A model generated the notes under the pieces. That model saw nothing but the letters and a program-made list of their open reading frames with translations. It was not told the origin of the DNA and searched no databases. A stretch of DNA of 64,000 nucleotides. It comes from Candidatus Thorarchaeota archaeon. Its GTDB lineage: Archaea; Asgardarchaeota; Thorarchaeia; Thorarchaeales; Thorarchaeaceae. The stretch covers positions 128,001 to 192,000 of the forward strand of contig JAGSHN010000012.1 of assembly GCA_029855935.1 (NCBI GenBank). Reading direction: 5' to 3'. Shown piece by piece: positions 36,639 to 44,633 of the stretch. Positions within the stretch are counted from its first letter, which is position 1; each line of letters opens with the position of its first letter. The position numbers were made by a program, and so were the translations under genes.

Positions 36639-36729
36639 CCAGGGGCAACGTAATACTACGCCTTAAAGGAGCCGCTACGTAGTCGGTGACTGGTCAGCAG
36701 GTGTTGGCAGTAGCGTAGAGGTTTTGAAC

Positions 36730-37509
36730 ATGAGTGATGCTTTCCAGTCCGAAGTGTATGCCTCCATTGCCACACTGGACCAGCTCAAGCGTCTCTACGA
36801 CCTCGGCGATATCGATGTCCGCTTCTTCGAGCGTGAGTCGCGAGCATTGATCAACGAGGTTCAGCGTGGTCTCGAACAGATGAAGCGTCTTGGGCTGGAT
36901 GTGCAGGCCTTTCTGACAGACTGGAGCATACACCAGCGTTTTCCGGAGGCTGCGAATCTACTCGGACTGGTCCCTGCGCAGCCGGCAGGCCCGACGTGGA
37001 CGGCGGGCCAGTGGGCATCGAAAGAGGAGTTCTATGACTACCTAGGTCTGCTTGTTCTTGATGTGGCGACCAAACATTCCTCAAAGGGTCTGATCGGTCT
37101 GGCTGAGATGATAGTCGAGGTGCTCCGCAGCCTGCCTAATCCCCAGGTGGCCAAGTTCACTGACGTCATCGAGGCCGTCAACCGCGTTTCGGGGGCTGGA
37201 CTGATTCCCGGTATCCGTACGCTGAAGGGTGGTGTCAAGGTTGTCGAGCTCCGCCCCCTTGAGCTGAGACGTGATCAGGCCGATGTCATCAATCTCGCGG
37301 CGGGCAAGGGCTACGTTTCTCTTGAAGAGGTGATGATGAACCTCGGTTGGTCCGAGGATCACGCACGACGCGTCCTGGCCAGTCTTGTAGAAGCCGGGAT
37401 AGCGGTCGTGAGCCTGAAGTATAGCACAGGTGGCAGATACTATTTCCCCGGGCTCCGTCCGATGGAACAGGATGGTGGCCCGGACGGCAGTCCTACAGTC
37501 TCAGAGTGA
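36730..37509 (+). CDS. vps22: ESCRT-II Vps22/36 (EAP30) protein with N-terminal Vps28-N-like domain
   Basis: EFYDYLGLLVLDV, GLIGLAE, PLELRRDQADVINLA, GYVSLEEV..NLGWSEDHARRVLASLV..G, YYFPGL match SNF8; N-term SEVYASIATLDQLKRLY resembles Vps28. Confidence 0.88.
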   Translation: MSDAFQSEVYASIATLDQLKRLYDLGDIDVRFFERESRALINEVQRGLEQMKRLGLDVQAFLTDWSIHQRFPEAANLLGLVPAQPAGPTWTAGQWASKEEFYDYLGLLVLDVATKHSSKGLIGLAEMIVEVLRSLPNPQVAKFTDVIEAVNRVSGAGLIPGIRTLKGGVKVVELRPLELRRDQADVINLAAGKGYVSLEEVMMNLGWSEDHARRVLASLVEAGIAVVSLKYSTGGRYYFPGLRPMEQDGGPDGSPTVSE

Positions 37510-38179
37510 TGGCATGGCGTTTCTTGTCAAGCCACTCGGCCAGTCCGTCCTCCACCAGGATTTGGAGAGCCCTGTGCAGCTCCTCCTCGGGCAGAGATGA
37601 GAAGGTTTCCTCTGGACACTGAATGACAAGGGTCTTGACATCAATCTGCCGTTCCCCTCGCCTCAGTGCCCATGCGTAGATGACCTCGGCCCACTCCTGC
37701 ACGGAGCGCCAGTATACCCTCAGCCTCCTCTTCTCCTCGTCCATCCACTCTGCGACTCCCTGCCCAACCAACCAGTCCCCAATCAGTCTGAATGCCTCAA
37801 TCTTTCCGTGAATCTCGCCGAACTCTCTCTCTATGATGAAATCGCCAAGCGAAACAACATGGGCACCCTGATGCCTCGCCCAGTCGAGCAGATACTCTCC
37901 CCACTCTGCTGTCCATCTTTCCCTTGCCGCGTCATTCTCTGGAACTGTATACATCCACACGGCGGCGCGCGAGCCACCCCATGGAGGCGGTGGTCCTCTC
38001 TCCCTCTGGGCCACGGTGACTGCCTGCGTCCGCACTCTCGCTGAATCCCTCGTCCTGTCGTGGCGTATCGCACCGGAGATTGGGAGCGGCTGACCTCTCG
38101 CTGTTTCCGTAGCTGGTACAGTGTCCCGCTGTTCCCCGGTTCGTTTCTCCCGCTGTTTCCGTTGTTCTCTCACAGCCAC
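37493..38179 (-). CDS. vps25: ESCRT-II Vps25 with charged N-terminal extension
   Basis: MYTVPENDAARERWTAEWGEYLLDW, GVAEWMD, YWRSVQEWAEVIYAW, FSSLPEEELHRALQILV..GLAE. Confidence 0.88.
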   Translation of the reverse strand: MAVREQRKQREKRTGEQRDTVPATETARGQPLPISGAIRHDRTRDSARVRTQAVTVAQRERGPPPPWGGSRAAVWMYTVPENDAARERWTAEWGEYLLDWARHQGAHVVSLGDFIIEREFGEIHGKIEAFRLIGDWLVGQGVAEWMDEEKRRLRVYWRSVQEWAEVIYAWALRRGERQIDVKTLVIQCPEETFSSLPEEELHRALQILVEDGLAEWLDKKRHAITLRL

Positions 38180-38181
38180 GG

Positions 38182-39381
38182 CTACGGTGCCTCCGCCCAG
38201 CTGACGTACCTGCTTATGTCATTGGCTCTGATGGCTGGCCTCGTCAGGTCGATGGCGTACAGAAAGTCGTCCATACTCACAGGACGCAATACGGGGGTCA
38301 GACCATCACTCGAGAGCTGTCCGGTTCGCTGAAGTTCTCTGATCGGCTCCATTGCAGCCTCCCTGCATATCACGCTGATGTCCCTCCCGCTGTAGCCCTC
38401 GGTCAGGTCGGCAAGATCGCGGAAGCTCACATCTGCAGCGACTTCGACATCACGCATATGGACCCTGAAGATCATCTCCCGGGCATTCAGGTCCGGTAGA
38501 GGCACCAGTATCCGCTTCTCGAATCTGGACAGCAAGGCAAAGTCGAGTTCCCAAGGTAGATTTGTGGCCGCTATCACTGTGACTCGTTCTTCCGGTCTGC
38601 TGTTCAGGCCCTGGAGCTCGGTGAGGAGTTGAGTCTTCAATCGACGTTCTCCTCCGACATCGTCTGAGGAGCGCAGGCTACCGATGGAGTCTATCTCGTC
38701 GACGAAGATGATGGACGGCTGTCTCTCCCGGGCCATTGCGAAGAGAAGGTGGACGAGCCGCTCTGACTCCCCCAACCATTTGCTCACAATATTGGCTGCG
38801 GATACGTTGAAGAAGGTGGCGTTGATCTCTGCGGCTACCGCCTTGGCAATCATGGTCTTTCCGCAACCAGATGGACCATAGAGCAGGATGCCCCTCCACG
38901 GCTGTCTGGCCCGTCCTCGAAATAGCCCCGGATACCTCATTGGGACAATGACTGCGTCGTTGATTGCCTGTTTCGCCATCTCAAGACCCGCCACATCTGT
39001 GAGCCGGACGTTCGGTCTCTCCGTCACCATGGTGTCCTCAAGGGCCTCCATGAGATTGCGAGTTTCTGCAGAATCGGTTGCGAGTTCAGACCGTGGTGAG
39101 GCTGGCGAGACTGGCATGTCCGACGAGCTGGTGGGCCGTGGTCTCCGGGCGCGATGTTCGACAGTCACTCCCGACAGCTGCTTGACTCGCTGTATGCACT
39201 CCTCTGCGCGCCTGTAGTAGTAGTCTCTGACAGAGGGAATGCTTGTAGACCTAGACAGCTGCACGAGGACCCTGCTGGCCTGCAGATATGCCTGACAGGC
39301 CTCTCTTGCGAGGTTCTTCTGGTCCAGCTGTATGGCACGGCCGAGCAGCTCTCTCAGACCGCGGTCTATTCTGTCTGACAT
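38182..39381 (-). CDS. vps4: Vps4 AAA+ ATPase with MIT domain
   Basis: MIT (RAIQLD..EACQAY..RAEECIQRV), PWRGILLYGPSGCGKT, SKWLGESE, FVDEID, ATNLPW, TEGYSGRDI. Confidence 0.93.
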   Translation of the reverse strand: MSDRIDRGLRELLGRAIQLDQKNLAREACQAYLQASRVLVQLSRSTSIPSVRDYYYRRAEECIQRVKQLSGVTVEHRARRPRPTSSSDMPVSPASPRSELATDSAETRNLMEALEDTMVTERPNVRLTDVAGLEMAKQAINDAVIVPMRYPGLFRGRARQPWRGILLYGPSGCGKTMIAKAVAAEINATFFNVSAANIVSKWLGESERLVHLLFAMARERQPSIIFVDEIDSIGSLRSSDDVGGERRLKTQLLTELQGLNSRPEERVTVIAATNLPWELDFALLSRFEKRILVPLPDLNAREMIFRVHMRDVEVAADVSFRDLADLTEGYSGRDISVICREAAMEPIRELQRTGQLSSDGLTPVLRPVSMDDFLYAIDLTRPAIRANDISRYVSWAEAP

Positions 39382-39464: not shown

Positions 39465-40814
39465 TCAGCCGGACGTGATCTGTGCCTGCTCTACTACGAT
39501 GGAGGGTGTGATTGCCTCAGAGGTCCTCCTCACATCCCCTCCGACGAGGATCACTCGTCTGAGCAGGTCGAGCATGTTTATTCCGATGAGAGTACTCTTC
39601 ACAGGGTACCGAATCTCTCCATTCTCGAAATAGTATCCCTCCATCACAAGTGCGCTGAGGTCGCCTGTCGTCATATTCGGTCTGTCGCCCGTGTCGCGAC
39701 AGAGTATACCGCGACCCACCTCTTCAACCAGATCCATCAGCCCGCCTCTTCCCGGTTGGACTATGAGATTACTTGGAGCAATCCTTGGAGGGCTGGAGTA
39801 GGAGGATCGGCTTGCGTGAGCGGTGTTCTCAACTTGATCCTTCTGTGCAGTGTACGAGTTGTGCAGTAGACTCTTTAGTACTCCCTGCTCAAGTAGCATT
39901 ATTCTCCTCGACGGAACCCCCTCTCCGTCGAACGGTCTTGAGCTGACCTCTCCAGGGCTCAGCGCATCATCTACTATAGTCAGGTGTTCAGAGGCTATCT
40001 GCTGTCCGAGGGCATCGGCGACGTACGACCGGCCGAACTGAACCTCCTCAGCGTTGACCGCTCCACCGAACCCGCCGCCAAGTACCGAGCCGACAGCTAT
40101 CGGCCCGAATACCACCGGCATCTTGTCGTTCTCAATTCTTCTGCCTCCGAGGTTTGCGATGACCGCAGCGGCCGCCTCTCTACCGACCTTCTCAGGGTCG
40201 AACTCGCGCAATGCTCGCGCCAGCTCATATTCAGAGCTCGATGTCTGTTCATCCTCTGTCTTGATGGTCGGAGCCGAGTAGATGTATCCGGTAGTCCCCT
40301 CGTAGTATGCCTCGATGCCCAACGAATTCACGATGCCAGCGCCCCCACGCGAGGTCCGCATCTGTGCCTCAATTGCATACTTGTAGTCTGACAAGCTCTC
40401 TTTGGTCGCGTCGACCATCCTTGTGACAATGTCGGCGGCCTCTTCGGAGCTGAGGTTGGCCATCGCCCGGTCGTAGAGTCTCTCAACAACTGGATATCCA
40501 CCGCTCGCCGAGGGGAGCGATCCAAAATCGGGGTCGGGGACAGAGACATGTGCGAGCGAGATGGCTCTCTCGACAGCGGCCCTGACGTCCTCCTCTCGGA
40601 TGGTCGTGACGTATGCAAAGCCGATTCTACTATCAATGACACACCTTATTCCACAGCCACTGTCACACCTCTCTGCAGCGCTCTTGATTGAGTTGTTCTC
40701 CACCTCAATTGTGAACGAGCGAGTGCTCGCCACAAAGGCCTCGGCCTGCTCGGCGCCTTGTCTCTCAGCGTGTCTGACCGCTATCTCAGCGATACCAAGT
40801 ATCTCTTCCCGCAC
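39465..40814 (-). CDS. tldE: TldE/PmbA
   Basis: AEQAEAF, GIRCV, RPFDGEGVP, NMTTGDLS, TPSIVV; no HExxH; GTG start next to tldD stop. Confidence 0.92.
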   Translation of the reverse strand: MREEILGIAEIAVRHAERQGAEQAEAFVASTRSFTIEVENNSIKSAAERCDSGCGIRCVIDSRIGFAYVTTIREEDVRAAVERAISLAHVSVPDPDFGSLPSASGGYPVVERLYDRAMANLSSEEAADIVTRMVDATKESLSDYKYAIEAQMRTSRGGAGIVNSLGIEAYYEGTTGYIYSAPTIKTEDEQTSSSEYELARALREFDPEKVGREAAAAVIANLGGRRIENDKMPVVFGPIAVGSVLGGGFGGAVNAEEVQFGRSYVADALGQQIASEHLTIVDDALSPGEVSSRPFDGEGVPSRRIMLLEQGVLKSLLHNSYTAQKDQVENTAHASRSSYSSPPRIAPSNLIVQPGRGGLMDLVEEVGRGILCRDTGDRPNMTTGDLSALVMEGYYFENGEIRYPVKSTLIGINMLDLLRRVILVGGDVRRTSEAITPSIVVEQAQITSG

Positions 40815-40816
40815 CT

Positions 40817-42202
40817 CTACATCCCTCCGACAGGAACTTCTGTGGCCCGTGCGTGTGGTCCACCGCTCATGTCCGGCACCCATTGACCATTCTTTCCGCA
40901 AGTACCTGCGTCAAGCTCGAAGTCCCTGCCCACCGCGTCTATCTTGGAGAGAACCTCCAGTATGAGACCTGACAGCGAAACATCCCTGACCATCTGGCCA
41001 ATCTCTCCCTTCTTGATCACGTATCCGTATTGGGCTTGAAACATGAAATGTCCCATAGAGGGGTTCGTGTAGCCGTAGTTGAATCTGCACAGGAGAAGGC
41101 CATGTCTGGTGTCCTCAATCAGCTCATCAACATCCCAGTCACCCGGCTCCATGAACGTGTTGCTCATCCTCGGGATGGGTACGTGTGCATAGGACTCAGC
41201 TCTGGCTGCGCCATTCGACTCCATCCCCAGCCTAGATGCCGTTTCGAGAGAGTGGAGTATCTCTGTCAAGATGCCGTCTTTGACAAGGATTCGCTTTCTC
41301 GTCTTTGTCCCTTCCCAGTCATATGGGTAGGATCCGCGGGCACAGTCCAGCGTGGGATCATCACTTATGTTGAGCCACTCTGGTCCGACACTCTGTCCGA
41401 GCTTGTCCTCAAGGACTGTTGTGTGCGCAGGCCAGCCATCGGCCTCACAGGCGTGTCCAAACGCCTCATGCACCATTACGCCGTTGAGGACCGGATCCAT
41501 CACGACATCGTAGACGCCTCCCCTTACAGCCACCGACGAGAGCAGGTCGACGGCGGTTCTTGCGGCTCTCTCTCCAACCGTCTGAGCGTCCTCTTCCATC
41601 ATCATCTCGAACCCGCCCTTTACTCCGACAGACCTGTAGGCACGCTGCCGATTCGCCCCCTCTCTTGCCGTTATTGACGATATGATGCGCGGGAGGGAGT
41701 TCTCAATATACACAGAGGTCCCAAGAGAATTGGCCACATAGAGCTCGCTCCACAGCTCCCCGTATACAGTCCTCGCATTGGAGACACGCTCGTCAAACTC
41801 ACGTGCCTGCATGTCAATCTGTTTGACAAACTCCATCTTCTCCTCCATCGGGACATCAGGGAAGGGGCGCCTGACGGAGATGAACTCCTTCGCCCTGAAA
41901 GTGGGGCCGTCGATCTCAAATCGTTCGGCAACAAGTGGACGGACAGCGAGAGCCAGCTTGGTAGCAGACTCGCCAACCCCTCGCATTCCCTCGGGTGTGA
42001 GTTCCGTCGTCTGAGCAAAGGCCCACGCCCCGTCGATGAACGCCCTCACTCCTGCGCCTCTGAGATGGGCGGACATCGACCTCCGAGTCACGCCATTGAC
42101 CATCTCTATAACGGTAGAGTGAGTGTTCTCAATTCTCACGTCAGCGAACGATGCTCCTGCGTCGAGTGCAGACTCTACGGCAATCTGGGCAAGGTCTTCC
42201 AT
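40817..42202 (-). CDS. tldD: TldD metalloprotease
   Basis: HEAFGHACEAD, DDPT, YDWEG, PIPRMSNT, CGKNGQ. Confidence 0.94.
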   Translation of the reverse strand: MEDLAQIAVESALDAGASFADVRIENTHSTVIEMVNGVTRRSMSAHLRGAGVRAFIDGAWAFAQTTELTPEGMRGVGESATKLALAVRPLVAERFEIDGPTFRAKEFISVRRPFPDVPMEEKMEFVKQIDMQAREFDERVSNARTVYGELWSELYVANSLGTSVYIENSLPRIISSITAREGANRQRAYRSVGVKGGFEMMMEEDAQTVGERAARTAVDLLSSVAVRGGVYDVVMDPVLNGVMVHEAFGHACEADGWPAHTTVLEDKLGQSVGPEWLNISDDPTLDCARGSYPYDWEGTKTRKRILVKDGILTEILHSLETASRLGMESNGAARAESYAHVPIPRMSNTFMEPGDWDVDELIEDTRHGLLLCRFNYGYTNPSMGHFMFQAQYGYVIKKGEIGQMVRDVSLSGLILEVLSKIDAVGRDFELDAGTCGKNGQWVPDMSGGPHARATEVPVGGM

Positions 42203-42340
42203 CAGAATCACTAGCCGGTCGCATACACCGCTCGTTATAATTGCTTTGAAGAGTGAGTGGCGGTCGGTGTAACCTTGGTGATACACAGCTCTTTCTTATC
42301 CCATCACTGAGTCGAGACCAAGGCACACGGAGGCACACAG

Positions 42341-43909
42341 TTGAGTCAAGAATCCGCGCGCGACTCTTGCCAGGTCTGCAGAAGGTCTAACGGCGTCTAC
42401 TTCTGTGAGGACTGCGGTGCTGTTCTGTGTGCTGACTGTGTTGAAACGGTCACAAGCGACTTCTACTTCTGTGGCGACTGCCACTCCCAGATCCCGTCCT
42501 CGGAGACCGACAATCATCCGCAGAAGTGTCCCGAGTGTGGCTCCGAAGAGATTCGTACGGGGCGCCGGGAAGAGGAACGATGCCCCCGGTGTCACTCGAC
42601 AAGGCTTGTGCTCGTGTCGGAAAAGCGACGTACTCTCGCTCAGGACCTGCGTCAGGCAATCAATGTTCTCCAGTACGGACACTCAAGATTTCACGAGCTC
42701 TCTAGACGTCTTACTCGGATTGTCGAGACTCTGGTGTCACTACGGATGGCAAAGTTCGTCCACTACCACTGGCTTGAGCGCCACTTGGAGGAATTGCAGG
42801 AGGAGGTCCCTGCACTCAGGAACCGAATAGTCAACCGGGCCGAGATGGTGGCGCGCCAGATGGCTGCGGAAACATCAGGGATAATGCACGACCCTCTATG
42901 GACGGCTGACCAGTTCCCGTTCATATCAGGTGTGGTGAACAGGCTGCGCGAGCTTGGACGGGAGTACAAGGAGCGAGTCGATGAGACCCTCGCTGGTGCA
43001 TTCCGTCGTCTGGAGGAGATCAGCAAGACGATTGAGGGTCTCGAGTATTTCCGACGAGCCTTTGTGGCCTTTTCTAGCCTCGTCCCCCTTGAGGTCAATG
43101 AGCTGCCCGTCTGTGCACTGCCGGATATCCGCCTCACGGGGTCCGACTTTCTCAAGCACGACAAAGCCGCAGGAACGCTCTATCTGACCGACCGGCGAAT
43201 GGTCTTCATTGCCACCACTGGGACTATTCGAAAGAGGGAGTCCGTGGTCTTTGACTTTCCTCTGCCGTATCTGTCGGGGATTGAGGAGGACGGCAGACGG
43301 AAGAAGCGTCTTGTTCTGAGGATGCAACAAGGCGACATCAGGATAGTCTGTCCTGAGGGAACACGACGTGTGATGAGCGACTACATGGAGATTGCTCGCA
43401 GCTTTGCCAAGTATGCACAGACCAATCTTCAGCGTACGAGGCAGCTGCAGCGGTTCAGTTGTGCGCCTGATGAGGTGAGGATCCGTATATTGGATCTGAT
43501 TGATGACCTGCTCTCTCGAGAACGACGCAGAGCGATTGCCATGAGCGGTACGGGGGCGTACACTCGCTCTCCTCCTCCGGTCCACAGCTGGGGCTATCCG
43601 GAGACCTCGAATAGTCCTAGGGCCACATTCTCGGGGTCGCCATTCAGTCCGCAGGCCACAAGTCCAGATAGTCGCTACAGCTTGGACGGCTCGTATGTGA
43701 GAACGGCTGCGACTTCGCCCCCGCGCGGTGTCTACTCGCAACACTATGGCGACGGGGACATGACTGCACTACTCAATCACGAGATCCAAGAGACAATACG
43801 TGCACTCAGACGGGGTCGACTTCCTCCTGACGAGTTTGTTCGGCGTTATCGTGACCTGATGCGGAGTTCATTTGAGATGGAGCGACGCTTCTACGAAAGG
43901 GTTCGGTAG
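42341..43909 (+). CDS. Multidomain protein: B-box-like and Zn-ribbon fingers, coiled coil, GRAM/GLUE-like PH domain, Pro/Ser-rich linker, steadiness-box-like C-terminus
   Basis: CQVC..FCEDCGAVLCADC plus three more CxxC; AAGTLYLTDRRMVF; IRALRRGRLPPDEFVRRYRDL. Confidence 0.75.
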   Translation: MSQESARDSCQVCRRSNGVYFCEDCGAVLCADCVETVTSDFYFCGDCHSQIPSSETDNHPQKCPECGSEEIRTGRREEERCPRCHSTRLVLVSEKRRTLAQDLRQAINVLQYGHSRFHELSRRLTRIVETLVSLRMAKFVHYHWLERHLEELQEEVPALRNRIVNRAEMVARQMAAETSGIMHDPLWTADQFPFISGVVNRLRELGREYKERVDETLAGAFRRLEEISKTIEGLEYFRRAFVAFSSLVPLEVNELPVCALPDIRLTGSDFLKHDKAAGTLYLTDRRMVFIATTGTIRKRESVVFDFPLPYLSGIEEDGRRKKRLVLRMQQGDIRIVCPEGTRRVMSDYMEIARSFAKYAQTNLQRTRQLQRFSCAPDEVRIRILDLIDDLLSRERRRAIAMSGTGAYTRSPPPVHSWGYPETSNSPRATFSGSPFSPQATSPDSRYSLDGSYVRTAATSPPRGVYSQHYGDGDMTALLNHEIQETIRALRRGRLPPDEFVRRYRDLMRSSFEMERRFYERVR

Positions 43910-44000: not shown

Positions 44001-44633
44001 CTAGAGGCCAAGCCTCCTCTCAAGCGCCTGAATCTCTTCTGCCAGTCTGTCGGGTGGTGCCTTGGTGGATGGAGTGGTCCCCCTACGGCCGCCACTCTCC
44101 ACAACCTCGGAATCTATCTCCGCCATCACGTCTGCCAGCTCCTCAGGAGCAATTCTGCCATCCGTGGCTCCGTGGAGGGTCTCCTCGAAGATGCCGTTCT
44201 CAATCTCGAACTGCTCGAGTCTTCGTGCCACCTCGTCGAGATTCTGAATGACCCTCTTGGCACTGATCTCTTCTCCGAGGATACCAAAGATTGCTGCCAC
44301 CCTCTCCATGCCTATGTTGACTCTTGCTGTTATCCTCGCTCGCTTGATGTAGGACGCAATACGTAGAAGAGAGAACCGGACACGCTCGATCTTGAGAATA
44401 TCACGATGTGTCCGCAGGACCTCCCCGGCATAGAGTATGCAGGCCTCGTTCTGCCCGTTTCTGCGAGCTGTCACTGCCCGCCTCTTGGCATCGGCAGCCA
44501 GTTTCTCCAGATGGTTGCGCTCACGTTCGAGCTCTCTGGCCATCACCTGAAGACCGCTGACAATCTCCGTGACATCTGGCTTTTTTCTGCCCCATATGGC
44601 GGCCCGCTTCAACAGACGCAATAGTTTCACCAC
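44001..44633 (-). CDS. ESCRT-III, Vps2/24/46 (CHMP1-like) class
   Basis: LQVMARELER, ARRNGQNEACILYAGEVLR, EELADVMAEI, C-term MIM1-like helix LAEEIQALERRL. Confidence 0.87.
   Translation of the reverse strand: MVKLLRLLKRAAIWGRKKPDVTEIVSGLQVMARELERERNHLEKLAADAKRRAVTARRNGQNEACILYAGEVLRTHRDILKIERVRFSLLRIASYIKRARITARVNIGMERVAAIFGILGEEISAKRVIQNLDEVARRLEQFEIENGIFEETLHGATDGRIAPEELADVMAEIDSEVVESGGRRGTTPSTKAPPDRLAEEIQALERRLGL

Follow-up and report, generated by a model that had tools for sequence, protein, structure and literature searches.

A Thorarchaeota ESCRT-II subunit with a Vps28-type N-terminal domain in front of the Vps22 winged helices

In eukaryotes, the head of ESCRT-I is formed by the N-terminal domain of Vps28 together with hairpins of Vps23 and Vps37, and the C-terminal domain of Vps28 contacts ESCRT-II. 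The link between the two complexes, made via this C-terminal domain and Vps36, is non-covalent. Asgard archaea are, to our knowledge, the only prokaryotes to possess ESCRT-I and ESCRT-II; the two complexes bear on the origin of eukaryotic membrane trafficking, and the Thor lineage has, as far as we know, been reported without ubiquitin and without UEV-Vps23.

The closest described protein belongs to an Asgard Vps22 family (asCOG cog.002769, 'Vps22#', SB plus two wH), which was reported as 'fused to an SB' by Makarova et al. (2024, mBio, PMC10936438). In Table S3 of that work, residues 1–70 of the Thorarchaeota protein KXH75178.1 are assigned to the PF03997 VPS28 N-terminal domain (SB) by HHpred at 99%. 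The Vps28N–Vps22 fusion architecture is already known from this source; the absence of a separate Vps28 and an origin by deletion between neighbouring genes were not found spelled out in it. Hatano et al. (2022, Nat Commun, PMC9192718) use ThorAB25_09030 as 'Vps22' and ThorAB25_08990 as 'SB', and report yeast two-hybrid interactions involving the Thor steadiness-box protein. There, 'Vps28' is named as a partner of the Thor SB protein, no Thor protein being so labelled in the sequence file, and no mention of a Vps28-type N-domain in ThorAB25_09030 was found in the text covered here.

The window analysed here is the whole stretch of 64,000 nucleotides from position 128,001 to 192,000 of contig JAGSHN010000012.1 (Candidatus Thorarchaeota archaeon, assembly GCA_029855935.1), and all coordinates are given relative to its first letter unless a contig is named. 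The host genome measures 2.97 Mb in 32 contigs and is 97% complete. A first-pass annotation, made from the letters of the sequence, had proposed a Vps28-N/Vps22 fusion protein at 36730–37509. Its coordinates are right, and the fusion lies far beyond chance by Pfam, profile and hhalign comparisons.

The open frame and its two halves

The fusion gene occupies 36730–37509 on the forward strand and reads without interruption from the ATG at 36730 to the stop codon at 37507–37509, giving 259 codons (259 aa plus stop). An alternative TTG start at 36724 would add 2 residues; in the family alignment, homologues start at the ATG. The AlphaFold model of the full protein (pLDDT 85) places two winged-helix units at residues 96–241. 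Five parts can be delimited on the forward strand. A Vps28 N-terminal core domain of the steadiness-box type (aa ~4–84, 36739–36981) was bounded by hhalign, reverse search, AlphaFold and Foldseek, and is followed by a flexible Pro/Ala/Gly linker (aa ~85–95, 36982–37014), the fusion junction, placed by pLDDT and the homology borders. Winged helix 1 of Vps22 (aa ~96–176, 37015–37257) and winged helix 2 (aa ~177–241, 37258–37452) were each bounded by the SNF8 match, Pfam EAP30, AlphaFold and Foldseek, and a disordered, poorly conserved C-terminal tail (aa 242–259, 37453–37506) closes the frame, with pLDDT <50 at residues 245–256 and variable columns in the alignment. The A/P/G linker VPAQPAGP, which had been read from the sequence as joining the two halves, does so: it lies within residues 84–91, the sole internal stretch with pLDDT <50. 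Vps28 homology stops at aa 84 and Vps22 homology begins at aa 89, and the linker varies in length and sequence among family members.

The C-terminal half, about 150 aa that had been aligned by eye with SNF8/Vps22, consists of the tandem winged helices of Vps22 (aa ~96–241). Pfam EAP30 (PF04157) matched aa 70–227 over profile positions 58–217 of 219 with an E-value of 1.1e-9 and 38.8 bits, above the cut-off of 26.8. A family profile built from 36 members was used for the PDB search and matched human SNF8/Vps22 (3CUQ_A) with an E-value of 9.4e-20, aligning aa 89–240 with chain residues 64–217; yeast Vps22 was matched over residues 89–240 only (E 6e-4). By Foldseek, the top PDB matches were the Vps22 chains 3CUQ_A, 2ZME_A and 1U5T_A, followed by Vps36 chains. 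In the model, winged helix 1 is composed of helices 98–115, 124–134 and 143–155 and strands 121–123, 161–164 and 170–173, and winged helix 2, the most conserved region of the family alignment, of helices 181–190, 198–205 and 209–221 and strands 195–197, 226–228 and 236–238.

For the N-terminal part, searches with the single sequence would by themselves have left the identity as Vps28-N undecided. Pfam VPS28 matched aa 7–69 (profile positions 2–66) at an E-value of 0.029 and 14.6 bits, below its cut-off of 24.5. In PDB sequence searches (phmmer/hmmsearch), yeast Vps28-N came out at E ~0.1, and the top PDB sequence match of the fusion protein was a designed repeat protein. Such values, together with the ease with which helical hairpins are matched and the weak Foldseek E-values given below, are what speaks for ordinary, fast-evolving Vps22 helices whose likeness to Vps28 would be due to chance or to convergent hairpin similarity. 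We hold this to be very improbable in view of the profile comparisons, which are decisive for homology of the N-terminal ~80 aa to the Vps28 N-terminal domain.

For these comparisons, a profile of 88 positions was built from 28 Thor N-termini and searched against the six-frame translations of 151 Asgard genomes. In ~20 Asgard families other than its own it gave matches, usually one per genome, with E-values of 1e-8 to 1e-19 per genome; these lie at the N-terminal end of those frames to which Pfam VPS28 aligns over its full length. Canonical Asgard Vps28 loci that were fetched were matched in 30 of 30 cases, at 40–69 bits; reference Asgard Vps28 genes match PF03997 end to end with up to 67 bits. 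An alignment of 20 canonical Asgard Vps28 proteins has the motifs ELYxxIATLDxL, a G..D turn, G(F/L)D...F and FPxA..L in common with the Thor N-terminus. Aligned by hhalign, the Thor N-terminal profile and this Vps28 alignment gave 99.0% (E 2.4e-18, 80 columns, 33% identity), and the Asgard Vps28 N-domain alone gave 99.4% (E 5e-21, 77–80 columns). Conversely, a search of the host genome with the Asgard Vps28 profile gave a sole match, at 36742–36984 of the window over profile positions 17–97 (E 3e-13); when the search was repeated with all HMMER filters off, the fusion gene was again the sole match (E 8e-14). Pfam itself recognises the domain in the fusion of the sister family, which scores 27.1 bits and thus exceeds the VPS28 cut-off, and an independent HHpred assignment at 99% has been published (PMC10936438). 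The first-pass annotation's placing of Vps28-N likeness in the first ~78 aa is borne out by these results, and the N-terminus did not come out closest to the Vps22/36 N-terminus or to SHOCT.

The structural models agree with this assignment. The N-domain has a pLDDT of 93–98 within the AlphaFold model of the fusion and of 87 when modelled separately; its helices 2–25 and 30–53 form a hairpin, which is followed by the short helices 58–64, 67–70 and 72–78. In a Foldseek search of the N-domain against the PDB, the comparison with ESCRT-I core structures that had been suggested as a check, the best nine matches were all Vps28-N chains (2F6M, 2CAZ, 6VME; TM 0.66–0.73, rmsd 1.9–3.6 Å). The E-values were weak (0.19–0.49), as expected because the domain is short and helical; the ranking and the TM-scores are clear.

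The helices that precede the winged helices in other Vps22 proteins are missing, as had been claimed. H0 and the helical domain, represented by EAP30 positions 1–57, are unmatched in the fusion protein. Non-Thor Asgard Vps22 proteins span EAP30 positions 1/2–218, whereas most proteins of the Thor family f1 and the sister-family protein match from ~58–85 onward; among the f1 matches listed, three begin at positions 11–44. Compared with the Thor N-domain or Vps28-N, the N-terminal regions of 30 non-Thor Vps22 proteins showed no similarity, with an hhalign value of 0.2% and a best HMM score of 8 bits. Under permissive settings, hhalign extended the match between the whole family and non-Thor Vps22 across the N-terminus, with very low confidence. 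From the gap at EAP30 positions 1–57 and the N-termini without similarity it therefore follows that the Vps22 N-terminus was replaced and has not merely diverged.

Absent domains, distribution and origin

The Vps28 C-terminal four-helix bundle is likewise absent from the protein, in line with the initial reading: the Vps28 match stops at aa 84 and the winged helices come next. A CTD-only HMM of Vps28, run against all ORFs of the genome, detected none (best E 0.41), and the N-domain of the fusion gave 0.4% by hhalign against the Vps28 CTD profile. A Vps36 paralogue was not found either, the fusion being the sole EAP30 match over cut-off in this 97%-complete genome.

Outside the window, a 444-aa coiled-coil protein (contig C21, 327383–328717) was the second Pfam VPS28 match of the genome, at 16–19 bits. 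It was treated as a coiled-coil artefact; its family alignment reached at most 2% by hhalign against the Asgard Vps28 N or C domain. The adjoining 356-aa coiled-coil protein (C21, 329693–330760), for which Pfam gave no VPS28 match, has a C-terminal motif like the last helices of the Vps28 CTD (hhalign 14%, E 0.002, 30 columns). A BAR-Vps28-like protein of Thorarchaeia has been reported (Eme 2023; Makarova 2024, PMC10936438), and a remote Vps28-C-like module may be located elsewhere in Thorarchaeia, the 356-aa protein being a weak candidate for it.

The same fusion was sought in other genomes and in protein databases, as had been advised for excluding misassembly. In the protein database, 132 full-length homologues of ~245–275 aa were found at 54–69% identity, from Thorarchaeota where named; they stem from NCBI, JGI, ENA and Logan clustered proteins, on contigs of up to 3.1 Mb. 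In family f1 the fusion is present without internal stops in 25 of 26 sampled genomes. It is also carried by G108, the single genome sampled from the sister family within this order, with EAP30 at 55.7 bits and VPS28 at the score given above, both over cut-off. An assembly chimera, a frameshift or a read-through of two genes could be suspected in a metagenome-assembled genome of 32 contigs, the more so as vps28 adjoins vps22 in other lineages. The recurrence of the same frame and junction in the clustered proteins and in two families, and an in-frame linker between flanking domains that are both truncated, unlike a read-through of two intact genes, make such an artefact a negligible prospect.

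A VPS28 match over cut-off was obtained in none of the 26 f1 genomes, against 101 of the 151 genomes of the phylum sample. The fusion layout is conserved across the Thor order and absent from the other Asgard lineages sampled; within the 151-genome Asgard sample, the Vps28-type fusion is confined to this order. In a tree of the N-domain, with few columns and long branches, the fusion copies all lie on one side of one branch (support 94/85), which speaks for a single origin. Some genomes of the order have a second EAP30 protein, of 800–880 aa, so that in these the fusion is not alone as an ESCRT-II stalk subunit.

Gene order in other Asgard lineages points to how the fusion was made. Of the 30 non-Thor loci fetched, 27 have vps28 immediately 5' of vps22 and in the same orientation, and the same order was seen in more than 40 genomes among the matches listed in both searches; the two frames often overlap or abut. 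Because vps28 adjoins vps22 upstream in these lineages, the fusion was probably made by an in-frame deletion across the adjacent genes. One such deletion, reaching from the inter-domain linker of Vps28 to just before winged helix 1 of Vps22, would take out the C-terminal domain of Vps28, the spacer between the two genes and the N-helices of Vps22, which is exactly what the fusion lacks. No intermediate of this scenario was seen. To the fuller proposal, in which a single deletion in the ancestor of the Thor order replaced both stand-alone genes and left a hard-wired ESCRT-I/II supercomplex without Vps28 CTD, Vps36 and ubiquitin, we would give even chances.

Gene neighbourhood and a predicted partner

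The fusion gene sits in the usual Thor ESCRT neighbourhood, with a gene for a class II tRNA synthetase of the aspartyl/asparaginyl type upstream. The ESCRT-II gene vps25 (37493–38179, reverse strand; Pfam ESCRT-II E 2.3e-14, aa 76–177) is convergent with it and overlaps its 3' end by 17 nt. On the same strand as vps25, vps4 (38182–39381; MIT, AAA and Vps4_C, with Pfam AAA at E 6e-40) lies upstream of vps25, from which it is separated by 2 nt, and two TldD/PmbA peptidase genes come after vps4. An ESCRT-I-like protein with Zn-ribbon, coiled coil, PH domain and steadiness box is encoded at 42341–43909 on the forward strand, with weak Pfam B-box and Vps23_core matches, and an ESCRT-III gene of the Snf7 family at 44001–44633 on the reverse strand (Pfam Snf7 E 6e-9, over cut-off).

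The steadiness-box gene was found in all 31 sampled genomes of the family, usually 3–5 kb from the fusion gene. A database search with the steadiness-box tail alone (aa 440–522) returned only the query, and the tail alignment was built from genome searches. Its profile is weakly Vps28-N-like (hhalign 65%, E 6e-5 against Asgard Vps28-N). Modelled as a complex with custom alignments, the N-domain and the steadiness-box tail scored 0.75, with the best of 3 controls at 0.04; 58 of 80 solved complexes and 2 of 110 mismatched pairs attain this mark. The score may mirror likeness to the solved Vps23-C:Vps28-N structures (2F6M, 2CAZ, 6VME) and not real binding. At least 95% of contacts are common to the runs, the partner has a pLDDT of at least 81, and the modelled interface is the invariant helix-1 motif ELYASIATLDQLKK of the N-domain, the predicted contacts lying within residues 7–22. 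The C-terminal hairpin of the Zn-ribbon/PH protein (aa ~486–515) is the likely, model-predicted partner of the Vps28-type domain.

A different use of the hairpin has to be weighed here, namely self-association, by which it would mainly hold the stalk of a Vps22 homodimer in place of the Vps22/Vps36 N-helix contact. According to Hatano et al. (2022, PMC9192718), the Thor Vps22 ThorAB25_09030 interacts with itself in yeast two-hybrid assays, and one of two cross-linked dimer surfaces of a Heimdall Vps22 lies at the N-terminal helical residues 41–47. This contact region is exactly the one replaced in the Thor fusion; the three hairpins of the ESCRT-I head are, besides, homologous and stand side by side, so that homotypic packing is plausible. 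In solved ESCRT-I heads, Vps28-N partners the hairpins of Vps23 and Vps37 and not itself; the complex modelled with the steadiness-box tail, a heteromer, is of high confidence and engages the invariant surface of helix 1, and the gene of the tail protein is syntenic and co-occurs throughout the sampled genomes of the family. Self-association as the main role appears rather unlikely on balance, and it is not exclusive, as it can coexist with docking of the steadiness box.

The best explanation overall, which we consider probable, is that the fusion protein is the sole Vps22/36-family (ESCRT-II) subunit of this genome, with its N-helices swapped for the Vps28 N-core, and that it bridges ESCRT-I and ESCRT-II. 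In the mechanism proposed for this bridging subunit, the Vps28-type hairpin would pack on the hairpin that forms the steadiness box of the neighbouring Zn-ribbon/PH protein, yielding an ESCRT-I-like headpiece. The winged-helix pair would bind Vps25, a contact that we assume from homology and gene context, and Vps25 in turn would recruit ESCRT-III and Vps4. The peptide linker of ~12 residues would stand in for the non-covalent eukaryotic bridge from the Vps28 C-terminal domain to Vps36.

The Thorarchaeota arrangement is simpler than the eukaryotic one: a single polypeptide carries both the head module of ESCRT-I and the stalk module of ESCRT-II. If the hard-wired supercomplex is real, it amounts to a natural experiment in which a short tether can replace the eukaryotic Vps28-CTD:ESCRT-II bridge, and the published general statement on Asgard Vps22 and the SB would hold for the Thor order only. 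What is added here is the restriction to the Thor order, the lack of a separate Vps28 over cut-off, the proposed one-step deletion origin and the modelled contact between helix 1 and the steadiness box. These are increments only, the architecture being published; they provide a simple set of two or three proteins from which an ESCRT-I/II/III cascade could be reconstituted in vitro.

Comparison with known systems

The Thorarchaeota Vps22# of Makarova et al. (2024) is of the same family and architecture: the fusion protein is likewise an SB plus two wH of ~250 aa, encoded in the neighbourhood of vps25 and vps4. In that work the SB is stated for Asgard Vps22 generally, whereas the 30 non-Thor Vps22 proteins compared here have an ordinary EAP30 N-terminus. 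ThorAB25_09030 of Hatano et al. (2022) belongs to the same family as well, with a near-identical N-terminal motif and length and with vps25, vps4 and the 'SB' gene as neighbours, and the Zn-ribbon/PH/steadiness-box protein of the window is of the same family as the ThorAB25_08990 'SB' of that article (PMC9192718).

With eukaryotic Vps22/SNF8/EAP30 (3CUQ_A, 2ZME_A, 1U5T_A) the fusion protein has the tandem winged-helix core in common, and its gene is adjoined by vps25. It differs in lacking H0 and the helical domain, in the place of which it has the Vps28 N-domain. With Vps28, both the eukaryotic protein and the canonical Asgard protein of ~205–230 aa, it shares the N-terminal core in sequence, profile and fold. 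The C-terminal four-helix bundle, which binds ESCRT-II in eukaryotes, is missing in the fusion protein, and its connection to ESCRT-II runs through its own polypeptide chain.

Another merger of ESCRT subunits in Asgard archaea is the UEV-Vps23-Vps28 fusion of Heimdallarchaeota, HeimAB125_14070, described by Hatano et al. (2022, PMC9192718). The Thor N-terminal profile also matches the Vps28 part of this Heimdall fusion, in frames of 467–490 aa. The Heimdall fusion joins subunits of ESCRT-I only and retains the C-terminal domain of Vps28, whereas the Thor fusion crosses the border between ESCRT-I and ESCRT-II and drops that domain.

A Zn-module/steadiness-box protein and a possible second steadiness-box protein

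The protein encoded close to the Vps28-N/Vps22 fusion gene (522 aa, window 42341-43909, + strand) was found to carry Cys-rich Zn modules at its N-terminus, with a weak match to the B-box, followed by a coiled coil and, at the C-terminus, a conserved steadiness-box hairpin with the consensus ...LLRxGRLVPEDFIRRYRxLMRDSY.... The central region is putatively PH-like, according to the first-pass annotation and Makarova 2024 (PMC10936438). The gene was detected in all 31 sampled genomes of the Thorarchaeota family to which the window's genome belongs, usually at a distance of 3-5 kb from the fusion gene.

Elsewhere in the same genome, a frame of 538 aa (contig C15, 92454-94067, - strand) gave two weak matches to the Vps28-N/steadiness-box profiles near its C-terminus (aa 438-473 and aa 494-520), with whole-protein E-values of 0.0012 for the profile built from canonical Asgard Vps28 and 0.023 for that built from the N-termini of the Thorarchaeota fusion proteins. 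This frame may encode a further steadiness-box-bearing protein.

Other genes of the ESCRT neighbourhood and a large EAP30 protein

Two adjacent genes for PmbA/TldD-family metallopeptidases (window 39465-42286, - strand; E 1e-63 to 1e-64) are located between vps4 and the steadiness-box gene, within the ESCRT neighbourhood. The vps25 gene (window 37493-38179, - strand) was identified by a Pfam ESCRT-II match at aa 76-177; as called, its product has an Arg-, Glu-, Gln- and Pro-rich N-terminal extension of approximately 75 aa before this domain, and the start codon of the gene is uncertain. Additional N-terminal subdomains of Asgard Vps25 are mentioned by Makarova 2024 (PMC10936438).

A second, large protein of about 800-880 aa with a C-terminal pair of EAP30 winged helices is encoded in some genomes of the same order, for example on contig C21 of the sister-family genome G108 (locus L129), where the frame extends to the beginning of the locus and the winged helices occupy aa 648-789, and in genome G055 (C7:27377-27928). 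The genome from which the window comes yielded no such paralogue.

Coiled-coil gene pair outside the window

Using the Pfam VPS28 profile, the top score in the window's own genome (16-19 bits, profile positions 17-185) was obtained for a coiled-coil protein of 444 aa (contig C21, 327383-328717; L001:1351-2685), which is retained in 30 of the 31 family genomes at 56-79% identity. In hhalign, its family alignment did not resemble the Asgard Vps28 domains at the profile level (≤2%). Approximately 1 kb downstream lies the gene for a second coiled-coil protein (356 aa; C21, 329693-330760; L160:294-1364); the two genes are conserved as a pair throughout the family. The 356-aa protein contains a unit of about 23 aa, repeated three times in tandem (…QVQQVAERVDTSSVMEKIDSVE…), and a highly conserved C-terminal tail with the motif ELKSYPPTATLNENDIARLNKEIRxW, which is reminiscent of the final helices in the C-terminal domain of Vps28 (hhalign 14%, E 0.002). 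A 'BAR-Vps28' protein of Thorarchaeia was reported in Eme 2023 and Makarova 2024 (PMC10936438), and the 356-aa protein may correspond to it.
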